Virus record (IMG/VR): IMGVR_UViG_2690316345_000022
DNA: 30,122 bases
Direction: 5' to 3' (one strand)
Origin: a virus
Taxonomy: Duplodnaviria > Heunggongvirae > Uroviricota > Caudoviricetes
The notes below the pieces were generated by a model, which did no database searches, was not told where the DNA came from, and was given only the letters and a program-made list of their open reading frames with translations. Below, piece after piece: positions 1 through 22,382 of the stretch. Position 1 is the first letter of the stretch; each line of letters begins with the position of its first letter. The translations under genes were made by a program, and so were the position numbers.

Positions 1-276
1 ATGAGTATTCGTATTGAAATTGGCGAACGTTATGTCGTTACCAGTGACAGCTTCCAGTTTATTCTCCACGAGAAAAAGAGAGCGGAAAGCGGTAAAAACG
101 CCGGTCAGGAATGGCTGGCGGTGGTTGGTTATTACCCGAAATTAAGCCAGCTCGTTTCCGGCCTGATGCATCACGATATTCTGACCGGAAGCGCAAAGTC
201 TTTTGCTGATTTAAACGCGCAGGTTGAGCAACTCAGCAGGCGTTGTTCAGAGGCTTTTGGCTCATATGGCCGTTAA
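1..276 (+). CDS. Small early-operon hypothetical protein upstream of gene A (possibly 5'-truncated by window edge)
   Basis: ORF track 1..276, 91 aa; overlaps start of A as in P2 early operon (orf82/83-like position). Function unknown. Confidence 0.5.
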   Translation: MSIRIEIGERYVVTSDSFQFILHEKKRAESGKNAGQEWLAVVGYYPKLSQLVSGLMHHDILTGSAKSFADLNAQVEQLSRRCSEAFGSYGR

Positions 277-2551
277 AGCCTCCGGGCGTTTTGTCCCTCC
301 GTCAGCATTTGCTGCAGGCACCGGTAAGGCGTTTACCGGTGTTTATGCATGGAACGCGCCACGCGAGGCTGTCGGGCGCGAAAGACCCCTTACACGTGAC
401 GAGATGCGTCAGGTGCAAGGTGTTTTATCCACGATTAACCGCCTGCCTTACTTTTTGCGCTCGCTGTTTACTTCACGCTATGACTACATCCGTCGCAATA
501 AAAGCCCGGTGCACGGGTTTTATTTCCTCACATCCACTTTTCAGCGTCGTTTATGGCCGCGCATTGAGCGTGTGAATCAGCGCCATGAAATGAACACCGA
601 CGCGTCGTTACTGTTTCTGGCAGAGCGTGACCACTATGCGCGCCTGCCGGGAATGAATGACAAGGAGCTGAAAAAGTTTGCCGCCCGTATCTCATCGCAG
701 CTTTTCATGATGTATGAGGAACTCTGCGATGCATGGGTTGATGCGCATGGTGAAAAAGAATCGCTGTTTACGGATGAGGCGCAGGCTCACCTGTATGGTC
801 ATGTTGCTGGCGCTGCACGTGCTTTCAATATTTCCCCGCTCTACTGGAAAAAATACCGTAAAGGACAGATGACCACGAGGCAGGCATATTCTGCCATTGC
901 CCGCCTGTTTAACGATGAGTGGTGGACTCATCAGCTTAAAGGCCAGCGTATGCGCTGGCATGAGGCGTTACTGATTGCTGTCGGGGAGGTCAATAAAGAC
1001 CGTTCTCCTTATGCCAGTAAACATGCCATTCGTGATGTGCGTGCGCGCCGCCAGGCAAATCTGGAATTTCTTAAATCGTGTGACCTCGAAAACAGGGAAA
1101 CCGGCGAACGCATCGACCTTATCAGTAAGGTGATGGGCAGTATTTCTAATCCTGAAATTCGCCGGATGGAGCTGATGAACACCATTGCCGGTATTGAGCG
1201 TTACGCCGCCGCAGAGGGTGATGTGGGGATGTTTATCACGCTGACCGCGCCGTCAAAGTATCACCCGACACGTCAGGTCGGAAAAGGCGAAAGTAAAACC
1301 GTTCAGCTTAATCACGGCTGGAACGATGAGGCATTTAATCCAAAGGATGCGCAGCGTTATCTCTGCCGTATCTGGAGCCTGATGCGCACGGCATTCAAGG
1401 ATAATGATTTACAGGTCTACGGTTTGCGAGTCGTCGAGCCACACCACGACGGAACGCCGCACTGGCATATGATGCTTTTTTGTAATCCACGCCAGCGTAA
1501 CCAGATTATCGAAATCATGCGTCGCTACGCGCTCAAAGAGGATGGCGACGAAAGAGGAGCTGCGCGAAACCGTTTTCAGGCAAAACACCTTAACCGGGGT
1601 GGTGCTGCGGGGTATATCGCTAAATACATCTCAAAAAATATCGACGGCTATGCACTGGATGGTCAGCTCAATAACGATACCGGCAGGCCGCTTAAAGACA
1701 CTGCCGCGGCTGTTACCGCATGGGCGTCAACGTGGCGCATTCCGCAATTTAAAACGGTTGGACTGCCGACAATGGGGGCTTACCGTGAACTACGCAAATT
1801 GCCTCGCGGCGTCAGCATAGCTGATGAGTTTGACGAACGCGTCGAGGCTGCACGCGCTGCCGCAGACAGTGGCGATTTTGCGCTGTATATCAGCGCGCAG
1901 GGTGGGGCAAATGTCCCGCGCGATTGTCAGACTGTCAGGGTCGCCCGTAGCCCGTCGGATGACGTTAACGAGTACGAGGAAGAGGTCGAGAGAGTGGTCG
2001 GTATTTACGCGCCGCATCTCGGCGCGCGTCATATTCATATCACCAGAACCACGGACTGGCGCATTGTGCCGAAAGTGCCGGTCGTTGAGCCTTTGACTTT
2101 AAAAAGCGGCATCGCCGCGCCTCGGAGTCCTGTCAATAACTGTGGAAAGCTCACCGGTGGTGATACTTCGTTACCGGCTCCCACACCTTCTGAACACGCC
2201 GCAGCAGTGCTTAATCTGGTTGATGACGGTGTTATCGAATGGAATGACCCGGAGGTCGTGAGGGCGCTCAGGGGCGCATTAAAACACGACCTGAGAACAC
2301 CAAACCGTCAGCAAAGAAACGGAAGCCCGTTAAAACCACATGAAATTGCACCATCGGCCAGACTGACCCGGTCGGAACGAATGCAAATTACCCGTATCCG
2401 CGTTGACCTTGCTCAGAACGGTATCAGGCCGCAGCGATGGGAGCTTGAGGCGCTGGCGCGTGGCGCGACCGTAAATTACGACGGGAAAAAATTCACGTAT
2501 CCGGTCGCTGATGAGTGGCCGGGATTCTCAACAGTAATGGAGTGGACATGA
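266..2551 (+). CDS. A: Replication initiation protein gpA (rolling-circle nicking endonuclease)
   Basis: ORF 224..2551; internal ATG at 266 gives MAVKASGRFVPP..., 761 aa, the P2 gpA length; the longer TTG/ATG extension in the track is probably not used. Confidence 0.92.
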   Translation: MAVKASGRFVPPSAFAAGTGKAFTGVYAWNAPREAVGRERPLTRDEMRQVQGVLSTINRLPYFLRSLFTSRYDYIRRNKSPVHGFYFLTSTFQRRLWPRIERVNQRHEMNTDASLLFLAERDHYARLPGMNDKELKKFAARISSQLFMMYEELCDAWVDAHGEKESLFTDEAQAHLYGHVAGAARAFNISPLYWKKYRKGQMTTRQAYSAIARLFNDEWWTHQLKGQRMRWHEALLIAVGEVNKDRSPYASKHAIRDVRARRQANLEFLKSCDLENRETGERIDLISKVMGSISNPEIRRMELMNTIAGIERYAAAEGDVGMFITLTAPSKYHPTRQVGKGESKTVQLNHGWNDEAFNPKDAQRYLCRIWSLMRTAFKDNDLQVYGLRVVEPHHDGTPHWHMMLFCNPRQRNQIIEIMRRYALKEDGDERGAARNRFQAKHLNRGGAAGYIAKYISKNIDGYALDGQLNNDTGRPLKDTAAAVTAWASTWRIPQFKTVGLPTMGAYRELRKLPRGVSIADEFDERVEAARAAADSGDFALYISAQGGANVPRDCQTVRVARSPSDDVNEYEEEVERVVGIYAPHLGARHIHITRTTDWRIVPKVPVVEPLTLKSGIAAPRSPVNNCGKLTGGDTSLPAPTPSEHAAAVLNLVDDGVIEWNDPEVVRALRGALKHDLRTPNRQQRNGSPLKPHEIAPSARLTRSERMQITRIRVDLAQNGIRPQRWELEALARGATVNYDGKKFTYPVADEWPGFSTVMEWT

Positions 2552-3003
2552 TGGCAAAAATTCACGAGGTAAAGCTGCACGCAAAATATTTCGACCTTGT
2601 ACTGGAAGGAAAGAAACGCGCAGAGTTTCGGAAAAATGACCGTAATTATGAGCGTGGGGACACGTTGATTTTGCATGAATGGGGGCAGGGTGTGTATACG
2701 GGGCGAAAGGTTGAAGCCCGGATAACAGATGTTACTGACCTGTCAGACTGGCTGGAAGATTATGTCTTGCTAAGTATTGATCTGCTTAATACAGGCGCAT
2801 ATGAGATTGTGAACTGGAAAGAACTTAGTGAGCGTGGGCTGGTATTCAGAATTAATCATGAAATTATGCATCAGCTCGGCCTTGCTGTTATGTATGAACC
2901 AGAGACAGGGATGTCTGGCGGGGCAATGGTTGCCACGGATGGAGCATGGAACTATTCAGATGAACAGATGGAGCGTGCACAGCAAAACGGGTGGCTTGGA
3001 TAA
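2548..3003 (+). CDS. ASCH/PUA-like (DUF3850-like) domain protein
   Basis: ORF 2515..3003; likely start MMAKIHEVKLHAKYFDLVLEGKKRAEFRKNDRNYERGDTLILHEW, which resembles the ASCH/DUF3850 N-terminal signature; overlaps A stop (translational coupling). Confidence 0.6.
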   Translation: MMAKIHEVKLHAKYFDLVLEGKKRAEFRKNDRNYERGDTLILHEWGQGVYTGRKVEARITDVTDLSDWLEDYVLLSIDLLNTGAYEIVNWKELSERGLVFRINHEIMHQLGLAVMYEPETGMSGGAMVATDGAWNYSDEQMERAQQNGWLG

Positions 3004-3209
3004 TGCACAGAATACCAGGCGAGATACCGCAGCATAAAACTAAAAATATCAAGCTGATGGCTATTGTTCAGCGTTTACAGCGGATTATGGTCAACGAAAA
3101 TTTGACGCCCGATGAGCTGGTCGGGTGTGCCGAAATAGTCCGGGATAATTACGGGCGGTTTAACCATATCGGTAAGTCCAGAGTTACGCCACCACCACGC
3201 AGACGATAG
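2991..3209 (+). CDS. Hypothetical small protein
   Basis: ORF track only (72 aa); no recognisable motifs; overlaps end of preceding ORF by 13 nt. Confidence 0.3.
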   Translation: MAWIMHRIPGEIPQHKTKNIKLMAIVQRLQRIMVNENLTPDELVGCAEIVRDNYGRFNHIGKSRVTPPPRRR

Positions 3210-3259
3210 AGAACGCCGCCAGTCATGAAACTTGTTTTCAGGGCTGACGGCGTTGAACA

Positions 3260-3588
3260 ACGAGCGAAGCGAGGCGTTAGTTATGACTATGATGGATTTA
3301 TTATATAAAATACATATGGTTATGTTATTTGGGTTACTTCGGTACTTTGTAAATAATTTGGGTTAATGATGATAAGAATTAAGAATATTAGTAGCATGGT
3401 ATTGAGAGTATTATGTTGTGAACATAAAAGAGTGTATTTGCAGAAAAGCATCAGCTCACTTGGGGTAAAGTTATGCGTACATAAGGTGCAGGAGTTACAT
3501 TCGAAGCACATTCTTATCATTTGCTAAAACGCTCGAGATTTTTGGAAGATGCCGTTATACTCTATCGGAGGATAAATCGGAGACAAAA
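3260..3588. promoter_or_regulatory. Strongly AT-rich non-coding leader upstream of the methyltransferase gene; likely promoter region and left boundary of acquired cargo
   Basis: Abrupt drop in GC after 3210 (long A/T tracts such as ttatataaaatacatatggttatgttattt); GGAG-like RBS (tcggagg) about 25 nt upstream of the ATG at 3589. Confidence 0.35.
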
Positions 3589-4626
3589 ATGGCTGTAAAA
3601 GTTGTTGATCTTTTTTGTGGTGCTGGCGGTCTTACACATGGCCTAAGACAGGCCGGATTAAATGTAGTCGCTGGTATTGATATAGAGAGTGCATGCAGGG
3701 TTGCTTATGAAAGCAATAATAGTGCGCTTTTTATTGAAAAAGATATTTCTCTGGTAACCAAAGACGAGCTTGAAGGTCTATTTGAAGGGGCACAAGTTAA
3801 GGTATTGGCGGGATGTGCACCGTGCCAACCCTTTTCTAGGTATACGCAGGGGCGTGATAAGAAAAATGACAAAAAATGGCCTCTTCTTTACGAATTTGAA
3901 CGTTTAATTCGGGATGTTAATCCAGAGATTGTGACAATGGAAAATGTTCCTGATGTGACGAAGCATTCAGTTTACAGTGATTTCTATAATAGCTTAGAGT
4001 CATTAGGCTATTATGTTTGGGCAGGGACAGTTGAATGTGTAGATTATGGCATTCCACAAAATAGAGTAAGGCATGTATTATTAGCATCTAAATTTGCACC
4101 ACTTTCCTTTGTAAGACCAAAAGTACAAAAAACGGTAACGGTGAAAGAATGCATTGGTGGATTACCTCCATTAGAGGCAGGCCAGACGGATCCAGTTGAC
4201 CCTTTACATAAAGCAAGTAAATTAAGTGACATTAATCTTAAACGTATTGCTTGTTCAAAGCCTGGTGGAACGTGGCGAGATTGGCCGATAGAGTTGGTTG
4301 CGTCATGCCATATAAAGAAAAGTGGGCAAGGTTATGCCAGTGTCTATGGTCGTATGGACTGGGATAAACCAAGTCCTACCATCACCACGCTGTGTTATGG
4401 TTTTGGGAATGGCAGATTTGGCCACCCAGAGCAGAATCGTGCAATTTCTTTGAGAGAGGCAGCCCTGTTACAAACCTTTCCAAGTGATTACATTTTTACT
4501 GCACCTAATGAGAAGATCTCTGTGAAGAACGTTGGCAGGATGATCGGTAATGCCGTGCCGGTAAAATTAGGGAAGGTTATAGGTGAGTCAATTATAACCC
4601 ACCTAAAAGAGAATAATATAATTTAA
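3589..4626 (+). CDS. DNA (cytosine-5)-methyltransferase
   Basis: 345 aa with canonical C5-MTase motifs: I DLFCGAGG, IV GCAPCQPFS (catalytic Cys), VI ENVPDV, VIII QNRVR, X GNAVPVKLG. Target specificity unknown. Confidence 0.9.
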   Translation: MAVKVVDLFCGAGGLTHGLRQAGLNVVAGIDIESACRVAYESNNSALFIEKDISLVTKDELEGLFEGAQVKVLAGCAPCQPFSRYTQGRDKKNDKKWPLLYEFERLIRDVNPEIVTMENVPDVTKHSVYSDFYNSLESLGYYVWAGTVECVDYGIPQNRVRHVLLASKFAPLSFVRPKVQKTVTVKECIGGLPPLEAGQTDPVDPLHKASKLSDINLKRIACSKPGGTWRDWPIELVASCHIKKSGQGYASVYGRMDWDKPSPTITTLCYGFGNGRFGHPEQNRAISLREAALLQTFPSDYIFTAPNEKISVKNVGRMIGNAVPVKLGKVIGESIITHLKENNII

Positions 4627-5354
4627 GCCTGTAAACTTGATGATCGTATGTATAAGCGATCATCAAGATATTTTTGTATATTTTCTAGGATTTCTTCGAG
4701 GTAATAAAACACTTCATTTTTAAGAAGTTCAAGATTATCAATGGAAGTATCTTGGCCCTTGTTCAGAAAGGATTCTGAGCCATGCGCTAAAGCATTTCTG
4801 GCATTTTTTATATTTACTAAATTTCCACCATTATGAGTTTTTAAGCGATTTGTTTGAGAGGAAAATCCATATATATTAGCTACATCTCTAATTTTCTGTG
4901 CATCTACATTTCCAGAAAAAAGAGGGTTTTTATCTGCTTTGACTTGTTTTTTATGCTCCTCTAACCATTTTTTTAATACTAGTTTTGCAACATCGCCTTG
5001 TGAAAAATCCATGTCACTAACCATATGATGATCTAATTTTTTTAAGGCAAGTTTTGTTAAGCTTTCACATATCTTATCAATGCAAAGATCATTACATGAA
5101 TTGAGTTCGTCATGTATATCTTCAATAGCATTAGATATAGTGGCTTCTATTAGGTTATACAATATAATAAACGCATTTGCTTTAAGTATATGCGTCATTT
5201 CGATATCAATGTTACGAAGTTTGTACTCATCAGAATCACGATCTTTATAAGAGAATGATGGCCTCTCATCAATAATGAATTTAACAAAATCAAAATATTT
5301 TTCTATATCTTCTTTTCTTTCAGAGAATAATATTTTGCTGTTCATGGTGACCAC
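4623..5354 (-). CDS. HEPN-like domain protein (predicted nuclease), downstream partner of the DUF262 gene
   Basis: 243-aa ORF; predicted GTG start 6 nt after the DUF262 stop with GAGGAG RBS overlapping that stop; C-terminal ARNALAHG matches the HEPN Rx4-6H motif; very AT-rich. Confidence 0.6.
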   Translation of the reverse strand: MVTMNSKILFSERKEDIEKYFDFVKFIIDERPSFSYKDRDSDEYKLRNIDIEMTHILKANAFIILYNLIEATISNAIEDIHDELNSCNDLCIDKICESLTKLALKKLDHHMVSDMDFSQGDVAKLVLKKWLEEHKKQVKADKNPLFSGNVDAQKIRDVANIYGFSSQTNRLKTHNGGNLVNIKNARNALAHGSESFLNKGQDTSIDNLELLKNEVFYYLEEILENIQKYLDDRLYIRSSSLQA

Positions 5355-5360
5355 GGATAA

Positions 5361-6485
5361 TTACTCCTCACTGTCATCTTGAACAGTATCTTGAGTCTGT
5401 ACACCTAAAAGTTTATCTCTTACATATTCAATTCGTGCTTTAACTTTAGGTTTTGAGTTCGAGGCATCAGATCTAGTATGTTTAATGAACTCTACAGAGT
5501 TAAGCCATTCAGTTACTGGGGCTGGTGTTATGCTTGGATTAGTTTGTAAGGCTAAAGTTGAACCAACAGCCAGTGCTTCAAAACGTATTCTTGGTACAGT
5601 ATTTGCCGTTTCGTTTTTTCTGAAACCATAGGGGAAATTCTGTTTTACAAATCTGCACATATCTTGAAATTGTTTAGCTAATTTGTTTTCTTGTTCAGCG
5701 GAAAATGTATTATTTCTATTATCAAGATATTGAGTTAGGAATGTGTCAACACTTTTTTCAAAGTGGAGATAGTTATCACAATATGCGAAATATCTAAGAA
5801 CTAATTCAGGATATTCTCCTCGATTGATTCGAGCATCGTTTAGGGGACATATTTCTCTAAACAATGGAAGTTCAGACAGACTATTAATGAAATCCAGGAA
5901 AGGACCATCATTGCTGCCTTGTCGCTGCTCCATTGTTGTAAGTCTTATTCCGCCTGTATTTAATCTATCGAAAATCTCTCTCCTTGCTTCTTCATCACAT
6001 AATTCAGTGAGTTCAATCATTCTAATAGTTTTCCTGTCGAATCTAAGCTTACGCGCAGGTGTGAAGTCAGAGTATTTGAATCCGTTAGCTGAAGTTAGTT
6101 TTTTTAATCCAGTAAGAGTAAATTTATCATTTAGGAAATGATAAAGTGTTCTAATCCTCTGGCTGCCATCAACGATTTCCAATCGTCCATCGTCATTTCC
6201 GATATCGGCGACAAATACATATGGAATAGGAATGTTTAGTAAAAGCGATTCAATGAATCTTGATTTTTGTATATTGTTCCAAACAAACTCCCTTTGATAG
6301 TCAGGAATATATAGCTCAGCTTGATCGGTTTCTAATCCTTTCTGAAACTTGTCAACAATAACACTAACAGGAAATTCTCTGATTTGGTGATCGGTTATTT
6401 TTTGCATGGATTTGATCTGGCTATCCAGTTCAATTTTATCTTCTTCTGTGATCACTTGTTCAGGCTGTCTTGGGACTCTTGCCAT
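5361..6485 (-). CDS. DUF262 / ParB-like (GmrSD N-terminal-type) domain protein
   Basis: ORF 5361..6512; likely ATG at 6485 (MARVPRQPEQ...) preceded by AAGGAG RBS; contains IVDGSQRIRTL, a variant of the DGQQR motif of DUF262; no obvious DUF1524/HNH motif seen by eye. Confidence 0.75.
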   Translation of the reverse strand: MARVPRQPEQVITEEDKIELDSQIKSMQKITDHQIREFPVSVIVDKFQKGLETDQAELYIPDYQREFVWNNIQKSRFIESLLLNIPIPYVFVADIGNDDGRLEIVDGSQRIRTLYHFLNDKFTLTGLKKLTSANGFKYSDFTPARKLRFDRKTIRMIELTELCDEEARREIFDRLNTGGIRLTTMEQRQGSNDGPFLDFINSLSELPLFREICPLNDARINRGEYPELVLRYFAYCDNYLHFEKSVDTFLTQYLDNRNNTFSAEQENKLAKQFQDMCRFVKQNFPYGFRKNETANTVPRIRFEALAVGSTLALQTNPSITPAPVTEWLNSVEFIKHTRSDASNSKPKVKARIEYVRDKLLGVQTQDTVQDDSEE

Positions 6486-6628
6486 GTGGTTTCTCCTTAT
6501 GCTTATTTGCAATAAGTTGCATTAGTTTGCATGTGTAATTTTATACTGATTTAATCCCACAAACTCTTTACATGCAAGGGGTTGAAGCTTAAATGCAACT
6601 GCATTAAAACCGTCCCATGAAGCGGGCG

Positions 6629-6647
6629 GGCGAGGCGGGGAAAGCAC
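6629..6647. other. cos: cos site (19-nt cohesive-end sequence of P2-type phages)
   Basis: Exact string GGCGAGGCGGGGAAAGCAC, recalled as the P2 cohesive end, lies between the accessory cargo and the 3' end of Q, the expected position. Confidence 0.7.
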
Positions 6648-6789
6648 TGCGCGCTGGCGGTGGTGCTGATTTTATTTTTTCAGCGTCTGAGCGCGTCGTG
6701 ATGGCGTTTAGATTGTTCGCCGGGGGCGTTGGTGTGTATGCGGGCTGTTTTGCGCGGTGGTGAGCGTGTGAGGGCGTGATGACGGGGTG

Positions 6790-6813
6790 TAAAAAAGCCG
6801 CCCGCAGGCGGCG
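6790..6813 (-). terminator. Rho-independent terminator downstream of Q (minus strand)
   Basis: On the minus strand, directly after the Q stop: GCCGCC-TGCG-GGCGGC hairpin followed by TTTTTTA. Confidence 0.6.
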
Positions 6814-6817
6814 ATGT

Positions 6818-7852
6818 TCAGCCGTTGTCAGTGTCCAGTGAGTAGTTTTTAAAGCGGATGACCTCCTGACCGAGCCAGCCGTTTATTTCCCGAATCCTGT
6901 CCTGTAGCGGGATAAGCTCATTGCGGACAAAGACCTTTGCCACTTTCTCAATATCGCCCAGCGACCCGACGTTCTCCGGCTTGCCGCCCATCAACTGAAA
7001 GGGGATGCGGTGCGCGTCCAGCAGGTCAGCGGCGCTGGCTTTTTTGATATTAAAAAAATCGTCCTTCGTCGCCACTTCACTGAGGGGGATAATTTTAATG
7101 CCGTCGGCTTTCCCCTGCGGGGCATAGAGAAACAGATTTTTAAAGTTGTTGCGGCCTTTCGACTTCACCATGTTTTCGCGGAGCATTTCGATATCGTTGC
7201 GATCCTGCACGGCATCGGTGACGTACATGATGTATCCGGCATGTGCGCCGTTTTCGTAATACTTGCGGCGGAACAGCGTGGCCGACTCATTCAGCCAGGC
7301 AGAGTTAAGGGCGCTGAGATATTCCGGCAGGCCGTACAGCTCCTGATTAATATCCGGCTCCAGCAGGTGAAACACGGAGCCGGGCGCGAAAGGTGTCGGC
7401 TCATGGAAGGACGGCACCCACCAGTAAACATCCTCTTCCACGCCACGGCGGGTATATTTTGCCGGTGAGGTTTCCAGTCTGATGACCTTACCGGTGGTGC
7501 TGTAACGCTTTTCCAGAAACGCATTACCGAACACCAGAAAATCCAGCACAAAGCGGCTGAAATCCTGCTGAGAAAGCCACGGGTGTGGGATAAACGTTGA
7601 GGCCAGAATATTACGTTTGACGTAAATCGGTGAGCTGTGATGCACGGCAGCACGCAGGCTTTTTGCCAGACCGGTAAAGCTGACCGGTGGCTCATACCAT
7701 CTGCCGTTACTGATGCACTCGACGTAATCCAGAATGTCACGGCGGTCGAGTACCGGCACCGGCTCACCAAAGGTGAATGCCTCCATTTTCGGGGCGCTGG
7801 CGGTCATTTTTTTTGCCGCAGGTTGCGGTGTTTTCCCTTTTTTCTTGCTCAT
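6818..7852 (-). CDS. Q: Portal protein gpQ
   Basis: 344 aa, the P2 gpQ length; start overlaps P stop (ATGA). Confidence 0.93.
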   Translation of the reverse strand: MSKKKGKTPQPAAKKMTASAPKMEAFTFGEPVPVLDRRDILDYVECISNGRWYEPPVSFTGLAKSLRAAVHHSSPIYVKRNILASTFIPHPWLSQQDFSRFVLDFLVFGNAFLEKRYSTTGKVIRLETSPAKYTRRGVEEDVYWWVPSFHEPTPFAPGSVFHLLEPDINQELYGLPEYLSALNSAWLNESATLFRRKYYENGAHAGYIMYVTDAVQDRNDIEMLRENMVKSKGRNNFKNLFLYAPQGKADGIKIIPLSEVATKDDFFNIKKASAADLLDAHRIPFQLMGGKPENVGSLGDIEKVAKVFVRNELIPLQDRIREINGWLGQEVIRFKNYSLDTDNG

Positions 7853-9624
7853 CAGTAAAACTCCAGAATGGTGGATGTCAGCGGGGTGCTGATACCGGCG
7901 GTGAGTGGCTCATTTAACAGGGCGTGCATGGTCGCCCAGGCGAGGTCGGCGTGGCTGGCTTCCTCGCTGCGGCTGGCCTCATAGGTGGCGCTGCGTCCGC
8001 TGCTGGTCATGGTCTTGCGGATAGCCATAAACGAGCTGGTGATGTCGGTGGCGCTGACGTCATATTCCAGACAGCCACGGCGGATAACGTCTTTTGCCTT
8101 GAGCACCATTGCAGTTTTCATTTCCGGCGTGTAGCGGATATCGCGCGCGGCGGGATAGAACGAGCGCACGAGCTGGAACACGCCGACACCGAGGCCGGTG
8201 GCATCAATACCGATGTATTCAACGTTATATTTTTCGGTGAGTTTGCGGATGGATTCAGCCTGGGTGGCAAAGTCCATGCCTTTCCACTGGTGACGCTCAA
8301 GTATTCTGAATTTGCCACCGGCCACCACCGGCGGTGCCAGTACCACGCATCCGGCGCTGTCTCCACGGTGTGACGGGTCGTAACCAATCCATACCGGACG
8401 TGAGCCGAACGGATTGGCGGCAAACGGCGCATAGTCTTCCCATTCTTCCAGCGTGTCGACCATGCAGCGTTGCAGCTCCTCGAACGGGAACACCGATGCC
8501 TTGTCGTCAACAAATTCACACATGAACAGGTTTTTAAAATCGTCGGCGCTGTTTTCGCGTTTGAGCTGCTCAATGTCGAACAGCGTGCAGCCGCCTTTCA
8601 GGGCGTCCTCAATGGTGACAATCTGTCGCCACTGGCCGTCCGCACAGAGAAGCCCACCGGCAAGGGCGTTATGACTGACGTCGATTTCCACACGTTCGGC
8701 GGCGCTGGCGCGTCCCCGGTTAAACAGTTCACCCGACCAGAACGGGTAGGCGTCGTGCGCCAGCGTGGACGGGGTGGAGAAATAGGTCGAACGCAGGTGA
8801 CTCTGTGAGGCCATACCTGATGCCACCTTACGCAGTACCTGAAAATTCGGGATCCAGAAAATCTCGTCGACGTACAGGTCGCCGTTATGGCTCTGCGCGG
8901 TGTTGGAGTTGGTGCCGAGAAAAATCAGTTTTGCGCCGTTATTGCCCAGGACAATCGGGTCACCGGTCAGGTCAACGTCAACCAGCCGGGCAAAGGCGAT
9001 GATGTATTCGCGGAACACATACGCCTGCGTTTTACTGGCCGACAGAAAAATCTGGTTATGACCGGTTTTCAGGGCGCGCAGCAGCGCCTCGCGGGAAAAA
9101 TAAAACGTCGCGCCAATCTGGCGGGATTTCAGGATATCGCGGATGCGGTGCTCAAGCCCGGCGCGATACCAGTGCAACTGATATTCGAAAGACTGCTCAA
9201 AGAAAATCTGCTCCAGCTTTTCGATGGCCTCGTCACTGAAAAAATTCTTTTTCGGTTTGCGACGCCCGCCTTTGTTGCGGTTAGCGACGTTCGGATTAAG
9301 GTCTGCCTCGTTGCCGGTCTGACTGTAACGGTTGACCCGTGCCAGCCGTTCAATCTGGCGTCCGAGCAGGTCAATTTCCTTGAAGTCACCGCCGGTTTTC
9401 TGCGGTTTGATGATGAGCTGGGTCAGCCGCGCTTCCAGACTCATTTCGACACGGCTGATGGGGGCAACGCTGTCCCAGCCGTCGCGCTGTTTCCAGCTCT
9501 GCACCGTCGGGCGTTTCATCTGCAACATGGCGGCAATCTGCGGCACGGAAAACCCCTGCCAGTACAGCAGCGCCGCCTGACGACGCGGGTCGTGTAAAAG
9601 AGTGGTGTCTGTGGTGATGGTCAT
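7852..9624 (-). CDS. P: Terminase large (ATPase) subunit gpP
   Basis: ORF 7852..9654; internal ATG at 9624 (MTITTDTTLL...) gives 590 aa as in P2 gpP; GAGG RBS upstream. Confidence 0.92.
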   Translation of the reverse strand: MTITTDTTLLHDPRRQAALLYWQGFSVPQIAAMLQMKRPTVQSWKQRDGWDSVAPISRVEMSLEARLTQLIIKPQKTGGDFKEIDLLGRQIERLARVNRYSQTGNEADLNPNVANRNKGGRRKPKKNFFSDEAIEKLEQIFFEQSFEYQLHWYRAGLEHRIRDILKSRQIGATFYFSREALLRALKTGHNQIFLSASKTQAYVFREYIIAFARLVDVDLTGDPIVLGNNGAKLIFLGTNSNTAQSHNGDLYVDEIFWIPNFQVLRKVASGMASQSHLRSTYFSTPSTLAHDAYPFWSGELFNRGRASAAERVEIDVSHNALAGGLLCADGQWRQIVTIEDALKGGCTLFDIEQLKRENSADDFKNLFMCEFVDDKASVFPFEELQRCMVDTLEEWEDYAPFAANPFGSRPVWIGYDPSHRGDSAGCVVLAPPVVAGGKFRILERHQWKGMDFATQAESIRKLTEKYNVEYIGIDATGLGVGVFQLVRSFYPAARDIRYTPEMKTAMVLKAKDVIRRGCLEYDVSATDITSSFMAIRKTMTSSGRSATYEASRSEEASHADLAWATMHALLNEPLTAGISTPLTSTILEFY

Positions 9625-9797
9625 GAATACCTCGCCGTGATGAATACACGGCAAGGCTACTGAGTCGCGCCCCGCGATTCGCTAAGGTGCTGTTGTGTCA
9701 GTGATAAGCCATCCGGGACTGATGGCGGAGGATGCGCATCGTCGGGAAACTGATGCCGACATGTGACTCCTCTAATCACTATTCAGGACTCCTGACA
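9625..9797. promoter_or_regulatory. Divergent late-promoter region between P (leftward) and O (rightward)
   Basis: Intergenic position between divergent late operons as in P2 (Ogr-dependent PP/PO); specific -10/-35 or activator sites not confidently identified by eye. Confidence 0.4.
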
Positions 9798-20710: not shown

Positions 20711-21238
20711 ATGCAGCATTTGATAAATATAACGGCAGGTAATCCAAAAACGGTTGAACAATATCAATTGACAAAGGACTTTGATGTTGTCTGGTTTTTT
20801 TCAGAAGATGGTAAGAACTGGTACGAAGAACAAAAGTATTTTGCTGATGACACGATAAAAATAGCGTACGACAAAGATAATATTATCCGCTATGTGGAAA
20901 AGGATGTGACAGCTATCAGACCAGATGGATTAAGTGTTGTTGAAGTGCCGGATATTACTGCTAATCGACGGGCGGACATTTCAGGGAACTGGATGTTTAA
21001 GGATGGTACAGTGATTAAACGAATTTATACGGCAGAGGAATTGCAGCAGCAGGCAGAAAATCGGAAAGCCAGACTTCTTGCAGATGCTGAATCCGTGATT
21101 TTGCCGCTGGAGCGCGCGGTCAGACTGAACATGGCAACAGATGAGGAGCGTAGCCGACTGGAAGCATGGGAACGCTACAGCGTTCTGGTCAGTCGTGTGG
21201 ATCCTGCAAATCCTGAATGGCCGGAAATGCCGCAATAA
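20711..21238 (+). CDS. G: Tail fibre assembly chaperone gpG
   Basis: 175 aa directly after H; position as P2 gpG. Confidence 0.85.
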
Positions 21239-21459
21239 GTTGTATGATCTCTGGAGTGAGCAAACGTATCTATGGCACAGAGTAAAGCCTAATCTGACAG
21301 GCCGCTCTGTGTCTGGAGTAGATTTTAGTAAAGCATTATTTTATTAGTGCAAATTCTAATCAATACATTTTATGTATATGATATCCTGCAGACTTTAATG
21401 ACTTGGTTTAGGCTAACCAGATAACACTGAAGGAATATTTTTGATAATTAAGGTACGGT

Positions 21460-22053
21460 ATGTTTACTAAGCGACGATTAAAAAATATTAACTGGGAGGC
21501 AAGTTCAGTGATTCTTGCTATGGTTCTCTTTGTTGGAAATATATTTTATACAAATCATCGTGATGATATAAGCATGGAGGCTGAGAGGGACAGTATCAGA
21601 ACAATGTTTGCATATGAAATCGCTAATAACCATCGCGCTCTCACTTTTCTTGATAAAACGAGACATATTGGCTTTGACGAAAATTCGGAGCATTTTGTTG
21701 GCGAGCCTTTTGCCATTAATGTCAAATCATTAGGGGGGCCTCGCTTACAGATTGCATTAAACCAGACTGATAAAGTGTTTAAATCCTACTTCAGCGAATT
21801 AAGTAAGCTTGATAAAGAGGATGTTACTCTTCTTATGGACTATTACCATGAGCAAAGCATCCTGCTGGAGCGTGTAAAATCTACGTTACAGAAGATGAAA
21901 AGTGGTAATGATATTAAAGTTGATATTGATGGTTACTTATTAGAAGAACACTTCATGAATGAGCTTAATCTTTCTAATATTTTGCTTAAACGCTATAGCC
22001 ATTTGTTGTCACAATACGCTAAAGAACATAAAACAAAAGATTTACATAATTGA
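21460..22053 (+). CDS. Hypothetical membrane-anchored protein in the G-FI accessory slot (P2 Z/fun position)
   Basis: 197-aa ORF in an AT-rich island; N-terminus MFTKRRLKNINWEASSVILAMVLFVGNIFY is a basic stretch followed by a hydrophobic helix; AAGG RBS upstream; no recognisable catalytic motifs. Confidence 0.6.
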   Translation: MFTKRRLKNINWEASSVILAMVLFVGNIFYTNHRDDISMEAERDSIRTMFAYEIANNHRALTFLDKTRHIGFDENSEHFVGEPFAINVKSLGGPRLQIALNQTDKVFKSYFSELSKLDKEDVTLLMDYYHEQSILLERVKSTLQKMKSGNDIKVDIDGYLLEEHFMNELNLSNILLKRYSHLLSQYAKEHKTKDLHN

Positions 22054-22382
22054 TAATCTGCTAATGGTTATTCATGGGGTAACTATGTTTTATATGTAAT
22101 CCAACTCAGATGAATTATTGATTCTGGATAATAACCGCAGAGCGGCATATACCCTGACAGGCAAATGTCCGCTTCTTGTTCAAAGCAGACTGTCAGATTT
22201 GATAACTTTTGGGCTATGTAAATTGTCAGTCGGAAAATGAGTGAGTTCAAATCAGGACTGGCGGGCGAATTGCCCGCATTTTCTTTATCTGTTGTTTCAT
22301 CCACTGACCAACCAGGTCAAATAGCGTCTCATGCACTGCCCAACAGAAAATAGTTGCACCCATTAACCACGGAGTTAAACGG

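Follow-up and report, generated by a model that had tools for sequence, protein, structure and literature searches.

A C5 methyltransferase-DUF262-HEPN cassette in the P2 hotspot of an Escherichia coli prophage: a candidate restriction-modification-like defence system

Organization of the cassette

We analyzed a DNA stretch of 30,122 nucleotides (nt; IMG/VR record IMGVR_UViG_2690316345_000022), referred to at its whole length as the window, which is a P2-like prophage of Escherichia coli whose right end is the host gene fieF (99.9% identical to E. coli). In this window, a C5 DNA cytosine methyltransferase gene faces a two-gene operon encoding a DUF262 (ParB-like) nucleoside triphosphatase (NTPase) and a HEPN protein predicted to be a ribonuclease (RNase). 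The features of this cassette are the following:

3589-4626, plus strand: C5 DNA cytosine methyltransferase, 345 amino acids (aa), convergent with the DUF262-HEPN operon
4623-5354, minus strand: MAE_28990-family HEPN protein, 243 aa, predicted RNase (R186-x4-H191), with a GTG start codon at 5354-5352 and the stop codon at 4625-4623
4636-4677, plus strand: terminator-like hairpin (12-bp stem and T-run), just past the methyltransferase stop codon and within the HEPN gene at its 3' end, from a terminator scan and the sequence
5352-5369, minus strand: translational-coupling junction, with GAGGAG at 5369-5364, TAA at 5363-5361, a 6-nt spacer and GTG at 5354-5352
5361-6485, minus strand: DUF262 / ParB-like NTPase protein, 374 aa, with an ATG start codon at 6485-6483 and a TAA stop codon at 5363-5361
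6486-6606, minus strand: region upstream of the operon, with a Shine-Dalgarno sequence (AAGGAG, 6498-6493) 7 nt upstream of the DUF262 ATG, a tandem ATGCAA-N4-ATGCAA at 6532-6517 and a palindrome, TAATGCAGTTGCATT, at 6606-6592

The proteins were compared with the profile models of PADLOC v2.0.0 and of Pfam (curated cut-offs), and with PDB both by sequence and by fold. The initial annotation of this DNA had proposed that the upstream gene of the operon is a DUF262 gene carrying the motif DGSQR (within IVDGSQRIRTL) and lacking an HNH partner domain, and both points were borne out. The protein matched Pfam PF03235 (GmrSD_N) at E=2.1e-28 and 100 bits (cut-off 33), and the motifs DYQREFVW, DGSQR and FDRLN were all present and invariant across 28 homologues; the motif set of the NTPase domain of GmrSD, BrxU and SspE (QR, DGQQR-type and FxxxN) is found complete in the window protein. 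The GmrSD_N domain lies at the N-terminus (about residues 50-190) and is followed by a helical C-terminal domain. We did not observe any match to DUF1524/HNH in Pfam at E<=1, either with the whole protein or with the C-terminal half alone, and this half matched no Pfam family; the fold search did not find a nuclease fold in the protein, and a PDB sequence search gave marginal matches only. Homologues were found up to E=1.2e-222. Among the PADLOC models, the best match was NsnA (4.6e-55, profile positions 34-376 of 385), followed by PD-T4-2_A (2.2e-34, profile positions 56-355 of 363). The N-terminal domain also weakly matched PDLC03418 (1.8e-08), a REase_II model derived from REBASE, as it does in 24 of the 28 family members; in a comparison with classical Type II restriction-modification (R-M) systems, this match was the sole endonuclease-like signal.

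The downstream gene had been recognized by its C-terminal ARNALAHG motif as encoding a HEPN-type protein, and profile search and structure prediction, both suggested at that stage, agree with this assignment. The protein matched Pfam PF18737 (HEPN_MAE_28990) over residues 10-235, with E=3.9e-20 and 73.4 bits (cut-off 26.8), and also passed PF18735 (RiboL-PSP-HEPN) at 3.4e-7. Within ARNALAHG, the residues R186, N187, L189, A190, H191 and G192, which include those of the Rx4H motif, are invariant across 30 homologues, and so are the SGNVDA motif and E70. The structure model of the protein (predicted local distance difference test, pLDDT, 91.5; predicted template modelling score, pTM, 0.87) had only HEPN domains among its ten best PDB fold matches, including HEPN-MNT toxins, with Csm6 lower. 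Homologues were found up to E=3.5e-139, in a family of moderate size (1,812 clusters at 50% identity). A PDB sequence search with the HEPN protein returned nothing, PADLOC gave no match to it, and NCBIfam held no model for either protein of the operon; the PHROGs families that they matched are of unknown function.

The two genes of the operon are translationally coupled, as read from their junction (AGT GAG GAG TAA TTATCC GTG on the minus strand). The order TAA, 6 nt, GTG is as first described, with one correction: the GAGGAG sequence does not span the stop codon but abuts it, since it consists of the last two DUF262 codons and is separated from the GTG by 9 nt. The two genes likewise overlap or abut in the homologous loci of Vibrio, cyanobacteria and Bacteroidota and on two metagenome contigs. 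With homologues at these E-values and tight junctions that recur across phyla, both genes are real and not chance open reading frames (ORFs).

On the opposite strand, the methyltransferase is predicted to be active, as it carries the motifs FCGAGG (motif I), PCQ with the catalytic Cys79, ENV and QNRVR. It matched Pfam PF00145 (1.2e-55) and TIGR00675 (1.4e-37), and in PADLOC DrmMII (3.5e-94) and MTase_II (3.3e-89); the resemblance to DrmMII is a lead and not a call of specificity. The PDB relatives of the enzyme (M.HaeIII, M.HhaI and DNMT1) align over the catalytic core only and do not indicate its target sequence. The stop codons of the convergent methyltransferase and HEPN genes overlap (4623-4626), and convergent transcription might time the expression of the methylase against that of the effector.

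Distribution and co-inheritance of the three genes

We scanned genomes at the species level, with one genome per species, which gave 250 HEPN relatives, and the best 80 loci were kept. Methyltransferases were assigned to the window subfamily at phmmer E<1e-90. The DUF262 gene was immediately upstream of the HEPN gene in 79 of the 80 loci, the exception being at a contig edge. A C5 methyltransferase adjoined the pair in 39 loci (37 of them with an enzyme of the window subfamily), most often in the convergent orientation seen in the window, and 41 loci had no adjacent methyltransferase. The three genes were found together in the following settings:

E. coli: prophages, P2 hotspot
Vibrio cholerae: chromosome
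Mucilaginibacter: same-strand Vsr-methyltransferase-DUF262-HEPN operon with overlapping genes
Metagenome assembly: Tn7-like element (protein cluster named Pseudomonas protegens)
Metagenome assembly: contig like a plasmid or an integrative and conjugative element (cluster named Polaromonas)
Phages: Peduovirus P24B2 (locus L096, LR595873) and nine Moraxella phages

In a neighbor-joining tree of the DUF262 proteins, pairs with and without a methyltransferase fell into separate clades. The methyltransferase-free pairs make up one monophyletic cyanobacterial clade, and all the non-cyanobacterial members (Proteobacteria, Bacteroidota and others) have the methyltransferase; an enzyme of the window subfamily adjoins the pair in every non-cyanobacterial locus examined. 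The initial annotation had described a two-gene unit to which the methyltransferase was optional, and this description does not hold for those loci. We conclude from gene order and phylogeny that the cassette is a three-gene unit, in which one methyltransferase subfamily is co-inherited with the pair over several phyla and on mobile elements of several kinds. Median identity to the distant members is highest for the methyltransferase (56%), followed by DUF262 (49%) and HEPN (37%). Among 44 pair-linked methyltransferases of the window subfamily, the target-recognition region is as conserved as the catalytic core, which is consistent with one shared DNA target.

When the neighbors of the methyltransferase-free pairs were read by eye, no other methyltransferase was evident among those that recur; they resemble ordinary chromosomal genes, such as aconitase (confirmed by Pfam) and a ClpB-like gene (by eye). 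In ten Microcoleus/Oscillatoriales loci of this clade, the DUF262 ORF is of about 190 aa and spans residues 10-176, i.e., the NTPase domain only, next to a full-length HEPN protein; the short version may result from gene decay or be a true variant of reduced length. The methyltransferase-linked and methyltransferase-free DUF262 proteins differ by 5 fixed and 6 relaxed differences, all of them in the C-terminal helical domain, and the NTPase motifs are unchanged. These differences are suggestive only, because they are confounded with phylogeny.

Two loci depart from the usual arrangement. On the Tn7-like element (L092, 6978-9331), a 649-aa HATPase_c_3 protein (PADLOC REase_II model PDLC03419, 1e-112) and a Vsr homologue lie between the pair and the C5 methylase, which suggests an extended or composite R-M system. 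In P24B2, the annotation shows the methylase in two pieces, of 114 and 705 nt, and not as one gene of about 1040 nt, which could reflect a frameshift or pseudogene or an artefact of annotation.

Position of the cassette in the P2 hotspot

The cassette forms a block of 3.3 kb between the replication-gene region and the cos site and portal gene of the prophage. The landmarks around it are the following:

224-2551, plus strand: replication endonuclease gene, flanking the cassette region on one side
about 6629-6647: cos site, which we take to be that of P2 (GGCGAGGCGGGGAAAGCAC)
6818-7852, minus strand: portal gene
7852-9654, minus strand: terminase gene

The block occupies the classical old/tin hotspot of P2, a known site of anti-phage cargo, where the cargo tested is overwhelmingly anti-phage. 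The guanine-plus-cytosine (GC) content of the cassette is 31-42%, compared to 52-57% for the phage backbone, and this low GC content marks the cassette as foreign cargo within a defence hotspot. The locus is a further example of the P2 hotspot as a reliable source of defence cargo. The allele of the window is rare: among 5,426 complete E. coli genomes, its nearest version, at about 88% DNA identity, was carried by only 4, and protein matches to the cassette reach 91% identity at best. In another E. coli P2 variant (L002/L096), the HEPN and DUF262 proteins have 59-71% identity to those of the window. RefSeq names the E. coli homologues 'DUF262 domain-containing protein' and 'MAE_28990/MAE_18760 family HEPN-like nuclease'.

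Comparison with known systems

The association of these genes was described before. Anantharaman et al. (2013; Biol Direct 8:15) linked the MAE_28990 HEPN family, in their Table 1, to a 'ParB nuclease' and to a DNA methylase, and their description of these operons is purely computational. By Pfam profile, Rx4H motif, fold and gene context, the window locus is a member of this operon family, from which we found no structural difference; the DUF262 gene directly upstream of HEPN and the C5 methyltransferase convergent downstream match the described context. Table S5 of Rousset et al. (2022) catalogues this type of cassette in the P2 hotspot. The catalogued cassettes have the same three domains as the window, belong to the same phage family and hold the same position in the hotspot, and the window allele is divergent. 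In the same study, a Vibrio locus with DUF262 and HEPN_MAE_28990 is labelled 'Type-IV restriction', and the accessible portion of the paper gives no sign of testing for either the P2 cassette or the Vibrio locus. Our literature search, which included recent work, found no paper testing the methyltransferase-DUF262-HEPN triad. As the cassette type is catalogued and its architecture was published before, the window adds a divergent allele only.

Among validated systems, PD-T4-2 of E. coli ECOR65 consists of DUF262 and HEPN and protects against T4, as demonstrated by experiments that included its deletion in the native strain (Vassallo et al., 2022). Its genes are at 338334-339873 of QOYX01000002, with PD-T4-2A as RCO39066.1 and PD-T4-2B as an unannotated ORF. 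Like the window locus, it is a two-gene operon with DUF262 followed by HEPN; the PD-T4-2_A model matched our DUF262 protein over its full length, and the authors' HHpred results place PD-T4-2B in PF18735 and PF18737, the same HEPN families as the window protein. By contrast, a methyltransferase is absent from PD-T4-2, the HEPN protein of which is of about 165 aa compared to 243 aa here, and the PD-T4-2_B model matched none of 30 members of the window HEPN family, even at E<=10. Judged by the PADLOC models and the authors' HHpred tables, the relation is one of kind and not of strict membership. An e14-like E. coli phage locus (DUF262 and a 216-aa ORF) was also considered as a PD-T4-2 system and rejected, with 49 bits to PD-T4-2_A and a partner without a PADLOC match. 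With this validated pair and low-GC cargo lying exactly in the P2 hotspot, the defence role proposed by the initial annotation is plausible. Its further suggestion of a distinct two-component effector, as a novelty, was anticipated by the association published in 2013, by PD-T4-2 in 2022 and by the catalogued cassettes.

The best PADLOC match of the DUF262 protein belongs to Menshen (NsnABC), a system from Millman et al. (2022). NsnA resembles the window protein in its ParB-DUF262 domain, its helical C-terminal domain and its proposed role as a sensor; the study of this system describes ParB-DUF262 as a DNA sensor and considers that the target of methylase-associated DUF262 domains may be DNA without modification (Nucleic Acids Res 2025, gkaf357). 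The partners differ, however, since Menshen has the ABC ATPase NsnB and NsnC, an inPIN effector, and the window has a coupled HEPN gene and a C5 methyltransferase. No ATPase ORF was present at 3200-6800 on either strand, and the HEPN gene is the only one that follows DUF262. Identity with Menshen was rejected on the absence of NsnB and NsnC, and because the HEPN protein is also unmatched by the PADLOC models, the window is neither Menshen nor strictly PD-T4-2. Since these models miss the HEPN partner, such cassettes are likely uncalled or mis-called.

PD-lambda-5 is another validated system, in which a ParB/HEPN fusion is combined with an adenine methylase in what was termed a compact 'RM+Abi' (Vassallo et al., 2022). 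It likewise brings together ParB-like, HEPN-like and DNA methyltransferase functions on a prophage, but its ParB and HEPN parts are fused (about 500 aa) and its methyltransferase is a D12-class N6-adenine enzyme; none of its models was among the PADLOC matches of the window. In GmrSD, BrxU and SspE, a DUF1524 His-Me nuclease domain is present, whereas the effector of the window is a separate HEPN protein, and a GmrSD-type enzyme was rejected because DUF1524 is absent.

Possible mechanism and alternatives

Considering these results together, we propose, with confidence no better than even, a restriction-modification-like defence in which the methyltransferase would mark self DNA, and the DUF262 NTPase would read the state of modification and gate the HEPN RNase. 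Both the DNA of the host and that of the prophage would receive the methyltransferase mark at a fixed target sequence. DUF262 would bind DNA and read whether it carries this mark by binding and hydrolysis of nucleoside triphosphates, like its relatives BrxU and SspE, and its C-terminal domain would probably do the reading. On DNA in a non-self state, it would release or activate its HEPN partner, which would act as a dimeric RNase and cut RNA (tRNA, rRNA or mRNA), leading to a translation shut-down in which a competing phage could not replicate. The outcome may be restriction-like or abortive, and the prophage would gain by the exclusion of rival phages.

Several points weigh against this proposal. 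The characterized DUF262 enzymes (GmrSD, BrxU and SspE) respond to modified and not to unmodified DNA. PD-T4-2 needs no methylase to work or to be tolerated, and the pair is maintained without an adjacent methyltransferase in a whole clade of cyanobacteria; therefore, the pair is not intrinsically methylation-dependent. Moreover, the differences between the methyltransferase-linked and methyltransferase-free clades might be phylogeny alone.

A more specific form of the proposal, which we put forward tentatively and as clearly less probable than the general one, is an R-M system whose 'R' arm cleaves RNA. The ParB-like NTPase would read the 5-methylcytosine self-mark of its partner, and unmarked DNA would lead to activity of the HEPN RNase, the DNA being left uncut. 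This would amount to an epigenetically gated abortive infection extending from E. coli phages to cyanobacteria. To our knowledge, no characterized system links a methylation mark, a ParB-fold NTPase and an RNase effector. If the proposal is true, the family would tie DNA methylation as a self-mark to an RNase effector via a ParB-fold NTPase, and infection sensing by PD-T4-2-type systems would also be explained.

Among the alternatives, the one that fares best, although we consider it unlikely, is a PrrC-like system in two tiers. The DUF262 protein would be a restriction deoxyribonuclease or nickase acting on unmethylated DNA, and would hold the HEPN protein inactive, releasing it for a suicidal second response only if the first tier is blocked by an anti-restriction factor of a phage. 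Anantharaman et al. (2013), whose Table 1 has the 'ParB nuclease' mentioned above, put forward such a PrrC-like model for R-M-linked HEPN genes. The linkage of the methyltransferase to the DUF262-HEPN pair and the REase_II match (PDLC03418) of the N-terminal domain in 24 of the 28 family members also point to it. However, the DUF262 protein has neither a recognized nuclease fold nor an HNH motif, and in BrxU, GmrSD and SspE the DUF262 part is the NTPase or sensor and it is DUF1524 that cleaves.

We find somewhat less probable still a Type IV-like or methyltransferase-independent system of the PD-T4-2 type, in which DUF262 would activate HEPN on sensing modifications of phage DNA or some other sign of infection, and the methyltransferase would be a passenger of separate function, such as an orphan or anti-restriction methylase of the phage. 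Modified DNA is what the characterized DUF262 enzymes recognize; PD-T4-2, without a methyltransferase, targets T4, and systems selected with T4 generally hit the T-even phages, which carry modified cytosines. The 'Type-IV restriction' label in Rousset et al. (2022) and the 41 of 80 loci without an adjacent methyltransferase argue in the same direction, and on the Tn7-like element the methyltransferase could pair instead with the HATPase_c_3 'REase_II' protein and Vsr. Nevertheless, the methyltransferases that go with the pair in all the non-cyanobacterial lineages and on five kinds of genetic element, including one same-strand operon with overlapping genes, belong to a single subfamily whose target-recognition region is conserved, and an unrelated passenger would hardly account for such a linkage. 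In addition, the pairs that lack a methyltransferase fall into one clade, in which there are signs of decay, the DUF262 protein being reduced to residues 10-176 in one lineage.

R-M modules can behave as addiction modules, and toxins of HEPN-MNT toxin-antitoxin systems are among the best fold matches of the HEPN model, but we regard as highly improbable an addiction module without a real anti-phage role, in which a HEPN toxin with DUF262 as antitoxin or regulator would, together with the methyltransferase, retain the cassette in the prophage by post-segregational killing: carriage by many kinds of mobile element is in its favor, whereas the tested cargo of the hotspot is overwhelmingly anti-phage, the nearest relative to have been validated is, as seen in its native strain, a genuine defence system, and addiction and defence are not mutually exclusive.

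Upstream region and further features of the prophage

Upstream of the operon, the tandem ATGCAA-N4-ATGCAA was found once in the window, with 0.02 expected. This motif and the palindrome are kept among P2-borne variants of the cassette whose proteins are only 55-71% identical to those of the window, and loci outside P2 lack the tandem motif. A generic promoter scan was at chance (12 found compared to 11.7 expected). The tandem repeat and palindrome may be a candidate operator or promoter. DndB, a protein of the DUF262 family, is an autoregulator, and a tie between this autoregulation and the upstream motifs is speculative.

Between the replication gene and the methylase, positions 2515-3209 (plus strand) encode a protein of 162 aa with DUF3850/ASCH and DUF7415 and an overlapping ORF of 72 aa (phrog_11386). 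Cassettes of the type 'DUF3850/ASCH + hypothetical' are named for the same P2 hotspot in Table S5 of Rousset et al. (2022). A second low-GC island is located at 21000-22200 (36-42% GC compared to about 55%), between the tail-fibre assembly and tail sheath genes, i.e., in the P2 Z/fun hotspot. The ORF at 21460-22053 (plus strand, 197 aa) within this island, which has neither a Pfam nor a PADLOC match, is a candidate cargo or defence gene.

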